DNA of 64,000 bases from Pecten maximus. Taxonomy: Eukaryota. The position numbers and the translations under genes are program-made. The notes under the pieces are model-generated. The model searched no databases, was not told the origin of the DNA, and was given only the letters and a program-made list of their open reading frames with translations. The DNA lies in assembly GCF_902652985.1 (NCBI RefSeq), contig NC_047028.1, forward strand, positions 14,880,001-14,944,000, given 5' to 3'. Positions within the stretch are counted from its first letter, which is position 1; the number at the start of each line of letters is the position of its first letter. Shown piece by piece: positions 47,301 through 49,628 of the stretch.

Positions 47301-48852
47301 ATCAACGTGTACTACAATGAGGCCACAGGTAAATGCACTGCTCTCGTAATTACTCCCGAAACTATTTTAGATAACAATGACATGATCGAAACTGGAGAAA
47401 ACATATGCAATTAAATATGAATATACAAATAATATCATAATTATCATGTGTTGGCGTTGGTTACTTTTAGTTTGCTTTATCAATTAAAATAGGGTTTTTT
47501 GTTTCAAGGAGGTAAATATGTTCCTCGTGCTGTCTTGGTGGATTTGGAGCCTGGAACCATGGACTCTGTCAGATCTGGTCCTTTTGGACAAATCTTCAGA
47601 CCAGACAACTTTGTGTTCGGACAGAGTGGTGCTGGAAACAACTGGGCTAAGGGGCATTACACAGAAGGTGCTGAGCTCGTAGACTCTGTTCTTGATGTTG
47701 TTCGCAAGGAATCAGAAAGTTGTGATTGTCTTCAGGGATTCCAGCTTACACATTCTCTTGGTGGTGGTACCGGATCCGGAATGGGAACCCTCCTCATCTC
47801 CAAAATCCGTGAAGAATATCCAGACAGAATCATGAACACATTCTCTGTTGTACCATCACCAAAGGTATGCCATTCTTGTGTTTATTTAATGCAATATGAA
47901 GTTTTTGGCTTATTAATTGAATTGACATATAGCTATGCATTAGTTGCGCTTCGGTTACCAGTGTCAAATATTAATAAGTATATGAAGTTGGGGAATGTAA
48001 ATGAATTAATCTTTAAATATTCTTCTTCTGTACTTTCAGGTATCGGACACTGTGGTCGAGCCATACAATGCCACTCTCTCGGTTCATCAGCTTGTTGAGA
48101 ATACAGACGAGACATTCTGCATCGATAACGAGGCTCTCTACGACATCTGCTTCCGGACCCTTAAACTGACCACTCCCACATACGGTGACTTGAACCATCT
48201 CGTCTCCGCCACCATGTCCGGAGTCACCACCTGTCTCCGATTCCCCGGTCAACTGAACGCCGATCTCCGTAAATTGGCTGTCAACATGGTTCCCTTCCCC
48301 CGTCTCCATTTCTTCATGCCTGGTTTCGCTCCTCTTACATCTCGTGGTAGCCAGCAGTACAGGGCTCTTACCGTCCCAGAGCTGACCCAACAGATGTTCG
48401 ACGCCAAGAACATGATGGCTGCCTGTGATCCTCGTCATGGACGTTATCTAACAGTTGCAGCCATGTACCGTGGTCGTATGTCCATGAAGGAGGTGGATGA
48501 ACAGCTCTTGAATGTCCAGAACAAGAACAGCAGCTACTTCGTTGAATGGATCCCAAACAACGTCAAGACCGCCGTCTGTGACATCCCGCCACGTGGTCTT
48601 AAGATGTCTGCTACCTTCATTGGTAACAGCACCGCCATCCAGGAGCTGTTCAAACGTATCTCCGAGCAGTTTACCGCTATGTTCCGTCGTAAGGCTTTCT
48701 TGCATTGGTACACTGGTGAGGGTATGGACGAGATGGAGTTCACAGAGGCCGAATCCAACATGAACGACTTGGTGTCCGAGTACCAACAGTACCAGGATGC
48801 CACAGCCGAGGAGGAGGGAGAGTTTGAGGAGGAGGAAGGCGAGGAAGCTTAA
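44381..48852 (+). CDS. TUBB: Beta-tubulin copy B (444 aa)
   Basis: Exons 44381-44437, 47220-47328, 47509-47864 (AAG acceptor), 48040-48852. Same intron positions as copy A. Variants M7, S124, F200, Y317. Confidence 0.95.
45285..46620. repeat. Minisatellite, 18/19-bp unit TTTATTGTTCACATACCA in tubulin B intron 1
   Basis: Homogeneous core with degenerate flanks. Confidence 0.95.
46836..47170. repeat. Minisatellite, ~29/30-bp unit ATTGAAACGTTACACCACAGTAAACAAAAT
   Basis: About 11 copies ending ~50 nt before tubulin B exon 2. Confidence 0.9.
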
Positions 48853-48923
48853 TCCATGTGAACCAAAATATTACTAAATTCCCCAAAAAGCCTAATTTTA
48901 CTGAAAAATAATCTGAACTTAAA

Positions 48924-48969
48924 GGAGGGGGAGTTTGACGAGGAGGAGGCCGAGGGCGAGGAAGCATAA
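48924..48969 (+). pseudogene. Orphan beta-tubulin C-terminal tail fragment ([14 protein letters not shown])
   Basis: GGAGGGGGAGTTTGACGAGGAGGAGGCCGAGGGCGAGGAAGCATAA lies 71 nt after the copy B stop and is followed by AATAAA at 48978-48983. Confidence 0.85.
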
Positions 48970-49628
48970 TTCGCTTGAATAAAGCCATTTCAACACTCTC
49001 CGATCAGTCTATCGATACCGAAAAGTAACGTCAACGTACAATTTTATATAATACAATGAAGTAAGATCACTACGAAAAGTCGCTAAACATGGCGAAATTG
49101 GCAATCGGACAACTTCATTGTGTTCCTAAGAATCTTGCCAAACCATTGCAGATTCTGGACTACATCCAGGTTTGAAAACTATGCATGTAACTCTTGCCAA
49201 CATACATGACGTTTACCAAAAATGGGAATATCTCCACAGACTGGAAAGGAGATGTTGTAATAATCATCCAAAATTAAAAATAGGACCAAAACGATTCATA
49301 CTGGGTTGTCTTTAATACTTGTTTTTGAAATGATACCTTGTAAGGAATCTGAATATTTATAGACTTGTTCAGGATTAATTATTATGTTTACTCATTTAAA
49401 ATGTACGAAATTGCTGTATGATGCTTTAATGGTTCTTAAGGATAAGGATATGCTACATTTTAATTGTACAAAAGACGACACTGAAAAACATATCGATGCT
49501 TTAAGTAAGCTTCGTTCTTTTCCTGTCTGTTTTTAGCATTTGTTTTATATTTCTATTCTTTCGTATGTGTCCCTCTAGACAGCCGTCTTAATATGACTGA
49601 CTATTGATATCCCCAAGACACCTTTCCA

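Follow-up and report, generated by a model that had tools for sequence, protein, structure and literature searches.

Copied 3' end of a neighbouring gene stands before a displaced tail, probably the original one, in a beta-tubulin gene of Pecten maximus

One gene of a tandem beta-tubulin array, here called B, carries a 111-bp copy of the 3' end of its upstream neighbour A, and this copy is inserted directly ahead of a second, orphaned tail that is likely B's own original end. We think it fairly probable that the insertion was made in one germ-line repair event in which a strand of B entered A by homology and left it again without homology, because the product combines a homologous entry, a non-homologous exit, an intact donor and no visible loss at the recipient. 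The coordinates of the features concerned are collected in Table 1; positions are those of the window, by which we mean the whole 64-kb stretch of DNA that was analysed, unless contig positions are named.

The region examined covers 244 kb, namely the window and the next 180 kb of the contig. Within it the beta-tubulin array extends over about 185 kb (window 32321-59500 plus contig positions 14944001-15096000) and consists of 13 intact genes with an open frame to codon 432 (12 on the forward strand and one on the reverse), copy D, which carries an internal deletion, and the orphan tail. Counted by parts, the 244 kb contain 14 first and 13 second exons together with 15 tails, among which the orphan alone lacks a preceding coding sequence. 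A and B each have four exons, 444 codons and GT/AG introns. Exons 3 and 4 of B match the Pfam families PF00091 (Tubulin, E 1.4e-35) and PF03953 (Tubulin_C, E 5.9e-45), and the 60 PDB matches listed for its product are without exception entries for beta-tubulin or tubulin (best E 8e-155), the closest solved relatives among these matches being beta chains. Four residues distinguish B from A (I7M, A124S, Y200F and F317Y), and the earlier note was right to use F200 and Y317 as markers of B, given that the last two of these differences separate it from A. Y317 is found in no other of the 13 copies. Residue 200, a benzimidazole-sensitivity site, is F in four of the 13 intact copies and Y in the other nine.

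The coding regions of the array form a patchwork of common tracts, with a median longest identical run of 131 nt over 78 pairs, whereas introns and UTRs are not common between the copies. By the number of differences in the coding body A is, if only just, the nearest copy to B (62 differences, against 63 and 65 for the next copies). Copy D (window 58524-59442) retains exon 1, followed by about 610 nt of non-coding sequence and the last 246 nt of exon 4, and has lost its stop; to judge from its structure it is a pseudogene. Copy H has a divergent exon 2 (contig 14996542-14996650), in which 33 of 109 nt are unlike A and B and several residues are changed, within an otherwise homogenised array. 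Long minisatellites lie between and inside the tubulin copies and flank B on either side, at window 40077-43429, 45287-46468 and 50018-52342, with units of 31, 18 and 23 nt respectively.

Table 1. Positions in the window of gene B, its donor A, the copied piece and the displaced end
Feature	Position	Strand	Remarks
Beta-tubulin A, donor	32321..35922	+	Exons 32321-32377, 34304-34412, 34628-34983, 35110-35922
Donor stretch in A, intact, running on into A's own UTR	35883..35993	+	AATAAA at ~36084
B exon 1 (MREIVHM...)	44381..44437	+	GT donor, open frame
B exon 2	47220..47328	+	AG/GT
B exon 3	47509..47864	+	Pfam Tubulin
B exon 4, coding part (F200, Y317, A-type tail, stop)	48040..48852	+	Pfam Tubulin_C
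Zone of tract start	48673..48812	+	0 A/B differences; 1-4 between A and 12 other copies
Minimal insertion, 111 bp	48813..48923	+	A's tail codons, stop, 71 nt of A's UTR
Non-homologous joint	48923..48924	+	1 nt microhomology
Orphan tail, within the present 3' UTR of B and preceded by two in-frame stops	48924..48969	+	Coding stretch 48925-48969
Orphan's own UTR, old sister of A's UTR 35923-35999	48970..49046	+	46/71 identical at +7..+77
Candidate poly(A) signal AATAAA, possibly not the main one	48978..48983	+	
Second candidate signal ATTAAA	49273..49278	+	Closer to the mean depth of the X1 contig

The earlier note had claimed that B matches A from about 48673 through the stop and 71 nt of UTR and then switches to a second tail followed by AATAAA, and both halves of this description are confirmed. 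The identity extends over 251 nt, made up of 180 nt to the stop (48673-48852, equal to 35743-35922) and a UTR part of exactly 71 nt (48853-48923, equal to 35923-35993), after which come the second tail at 48925-48969 and the signal at 48978. In the whole assembly the 71-nt UTR sequence occurs at two places, in A and in B (E 4.7e-28), and no third donor was found there, these match counts being lower bounds; A and B are the only pair among the 14 genes with a long near-identical UTR stretch in common.

The left boundary of the copied tract is undefined, because 48673-48812 is nearly invariant across the copies: positions 48676-48737 are the same in all 14, in 11 of the 91 copy pairs the zone differs by a single nucleotide, and none of its sites distinguishes A and B from all the others. 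The start at 48673 proposed earlier is not borne out, other copies being unlike A at no more than 1-4 of these 140 nt; we rejected this position as a measured edge and regard it as the furthest possible one, with the true edge anywhere between it and about 48819. The left junction is seamless within homologous sequence, and the right joint has an overlap of 1 nt and no added letters, with three of the last 15 letters matching. The donor is unchanged, A being followed by its own UTR in the assembly and in three public sequencing runs (X1, X2 and X10, see below). The copied piece contains no poly(A) and ends at UTR +71, about 90 nt short of A's AATAAA at +162, and the 7-nt direct repeat at the insertion is the native homology of the two tails.

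The proposal that B's old tail was pushed into the UTR is supported by the sequence that follows the orphan. The alignment of this UTR with that of A is gap-free and keeps register from the stop onwards: 46 of 71 positions are identical at +7 to +77 and 22 of 100 beyond, against a median background of 21/71 over 105 UTR pairs. Apart from the pairs that involve the copied piece, orphan and A are the best pair, and their alignment score was matched by one of 2000 doublet shuffles. Since the two UTRs align in register at this level of identity, the orphan end is evidently an old sister of A's end. An in-register sister UTR is what would be expected of an old A/B tandem pair in which the orphan was B's original end, and we infer that it likely was, no ancestral B allele having been seen. 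The orphan together with the next ~230 nt occurs once in the assembly. We rejected D as its source, as D's tail is similar (three other letters over 33) but the downstream sequence is unrelated, and we likewise rejected a homology between the UTRs of A and copy C, whose score was matched in 219 of 500 shuffles. Read-through of the stop into the orphan was also set aside: the orphan is in frame with B (111 nt being 37 codons), a one-in-three coincidence, but lies behind two stops.

The joint was checked on 48840-49500 in four public runs, of which three, from three studies, gave contigs and one (X4) gave none. We guessed the library types as DNA for X2 and X10 and probably RNA for X1; X2 may be the assembly's own sample. 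A single contig crosses the joint in each case, spanning 48894-49500 with no other letters in X2, 48894-49493 with two other letters and a different continuation in X10, and running from 48895 past 49500 in X1; on account of its two letters and its continuation, X10 reads as another haplotype. Reads over 48923/48924 had been named in the earlier note as a check on its claim. The joint is found in the contigs of three runs, but these hold 30, 30 and 29 letters to its left, which falls below the 31-letter rule for bridging. An overhang of this length is, in our reading, what 31-letter contigs should show on branching at the point where a shared tract ends, so that the reads would contain the joint sequence. 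The contigs reach none of the B-specific sites, and it is the assembly that ties the joint to B's body. The joint is probably real DNA.

In each run with contigs the orphan has one upstream neighbour only. If an un-inserted B end were frequent the contigs should break at the orphan's start, and no such break is seen; an un-inserted end was found in none of the three runs with contigs, which drop rare variants. The inserted allele is likely to be common or fixed, and is apparently present across samples. The idea of a snapshot of isotype switching is not supported, since the joint is present in all three of these runs and the old arrangement in none. Depth in X1 is 2250 at the last shared word, 1700 at the exit into A and 550 at the exit into B, and the contig of the D pseudogene's tail, which is present in both DNA runs, is absent from X1. 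Together these observations suggest that the joint is transcribed, and fit X1 being RNA; B is likely transcribed across the joint. In each DNA run the tract common to A and B is covered less deeply than its two exits taken together (44.1 against 28.8 plus 31, and 13.9 against 13.4 plus 9.0).

Two further observations concern single letters in these runs. At window 48890 the X10 contig that represents the tract common to A and B reads A instead of G, at a depth above that of one copy; if both loci carry this A, conversion between the tracts may be continuing. Past A's exit, at window 35994-36023, X2 and X10 differ from the assembly at two of 30 letters (one A fewer in a run, and one substitution), which is either an allele or an assembly error.

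The repair event that we favour would have begun around codon 432 of B, where the DNA broke or a fork stalled; the left end would then have invaded A, 12.9 kb upstream, within the nearly invariant coding stretch. Synthesis would have continued through A's stop as far as UTR +71, where the new strand would have come off its template and been linked, at the 1-nt overlap, to the unaltered right end, either by synthesis-dependent annealing that was aborted and then finished by end joining or by an out-and-back template switch. The net gain at B is 111 bp with no visible loss at the recipient, and the joint lacks the more extended microhomology that often goes with polymerase theta. Belmaaza and Chartrand (1994) and Puchta (1998) reportedly dealt with one-sided invasion, or SDSA followed by end joining. 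The earlier note had put forward one-sided strand invasion with non-homologous rejoining; the geometry fits this, but a crossover plus a deletion would give the same product, and the pathway is deduced from the product alone. Classical two-sided gene conversion does not describe the locus, given that B has gained 111 bp and that the old end was retained, not replaced, and neither does class 1 (LINE-mediated) templated insertion, with no poly(A) present and a 7-nt repeat that is native. A local 117-bp duplication followed by two-sided conversion by A was also rejected: having crossed UTR of 62% identity, the tract would need to stop no more than 1 nt from the joint, and a one-sided end would still be required.

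The same product could have come about in two steps, if exon 4 of B crossed over unequally with that of A and ~13 kb were deleted independently by end joining, in either order; the orphan would then be what is left of a second copy of B or of a neighbour since lost. Such a course would suit an array that is unstable, as seen from the loss in copy D of everything between intron 1 and late exon 4, and whose coding regions share tracts so widely, but it demands that both deletion ends fall beside the crossover point. With ends assumed to be uniform over the 12.9-kb unit, the left end would lie within 71 nt of the stop in ~0.5% of cases, and 1.9% of right ends would fall in the final 250 coding nt; these figures are approximate and subject to a bias towards events that attract notice. 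The contigs of the public runs showed no intermediate, and we judge the two-step course unlikely.

We give still less credence to a patch of RNA or cDNA made from A's transcript at a break in B, with homology at one end (class 2 type), which is highly unlikely. The copied piece does lie within one exon and its UTR, A is abundant in X1, and 111 bp is within the 73-414 bp of experimental insertions given in the accessible part of PMC5110952. A poly(A) tract is missing, however, and the piece stops well before A's AATAAA; the donor, moreover, is 13 kb away on the same chromosome and the landing site is exactly homologous, which a DNA template explains directly. It would be very surprising, finally, if the structure were an assembly error, that is, a chimeric or mis-phased join over the 251-nt identical tract. 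Contigs of 31 letters cannot phase 251 identical nt, and the assembly is unlike X2 and X10 past A's exit, but contigs of three runs, each from a different study, contain the joint sequence, the orphan has its single upstream neighbour in each, and the X10 depths of the joint, A's exit and D's tail are alike (28.8, 31 and 29.5).

The consequences for the protein appear slight. The orphan tail is two residues longer than the new one and has D for E in the motif, and each has ten Glu. The motif EGEFXXX (X = D/E) is kept in the new tail and the orphan as well as in every other copy listed, across at least ten distinct C-terminal tails in the array; in the accessible part of PMC2880298 it is given as the axoneme motif and described as a substrate motif for glutamylation and glycylation. 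An A-type tail was already present in two other copies, and copy C encodes the same tail as A. The predicted B protein would have lost two tail residues and exchanged D for E, so that three residues are changed in all, with B's four body differences from A retained, and the predicted 3' UTR would be ~117 nt longer. A meaningful isotype switch, as the earlier note had it, is thus overstated: the term is formally right and biologically slight, the tails differing by D>E and two residues with Glu equal and the motif kept. Because the tails are nearly equivalent and A's tail is found in two other copies, any functional effect is probably small, and it is more likely to fall on the mRNA than on the protein. 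What the locus shows is a neat scar of repair, not a switch in function.

As for the mRNA, the ATTAAA at 49273 fits the depth of X1 better than the AATAAA at 48978: the X1 contig has a mean depth of 337.7, against 355 expected if molecules end after the former and 75 if after the latter. This is a weak hint, since contigs cannot show ends. It is a long shot that half-homologous repair serves as a route for swapping 3' modules (tail plus UTR) in tubulin arrays, and that this allele spread in the species through an effect of the hybrid UTR or the tail on the expression or modification of B.

A search of the openly available literature returned no published description of this tubulin locus and, judged by titles and the openings of abstracts, none of a displaced tail. 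The repair outcome and the homogenisation of tubulins are both already known, and the B locus is a real, new and well-preserved instance. As far as the accessible part of PMC2895639 goes, the SDSA+EJ outcome is documented in the fly germ line; in PMC4888836 and PMC9299229 the accessible parts offer reference titles and a brief use of the repair term. B resembles the fly products in having one homologous and one end-joined end, a templated gain and an unchanged donor, and differs in being natural and inherited and in involving paralogs 13 kb apart, where the fly system has a sister chromatid and an engineered break. With class 2 templated sequence insertion polymorphisms, as set out in the part of PMC5110952 available, it shares a short germ-line copy, the lack of poly(A), an end-joining junction and an intact donor. 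Unlike those insertions, whose sites are seemingly random and whose donors are distant, B, itself a paralog adjacent to the donor, received its copy at the homologous site and with a single seamless end, and an empty B allele was found in none of the three runs with contigs, which lose rare variants. Tubulin paralogs with homogenised coding regions and distinct UTRs are described in the accessible text of PMC1533823, and the rest of this array follows that pattern, whereas the tract in B ran past the coding region into the UTR, ended non-homologously and left the displaced end behind. B thus illustrates how a conversion tract can escape the coding region into a diverged UTR, and it offers an unusually legible natural and inherited case of an outcome known mostly from engineered breaks, with donor, copied tract, joint and displaced original all still readable.
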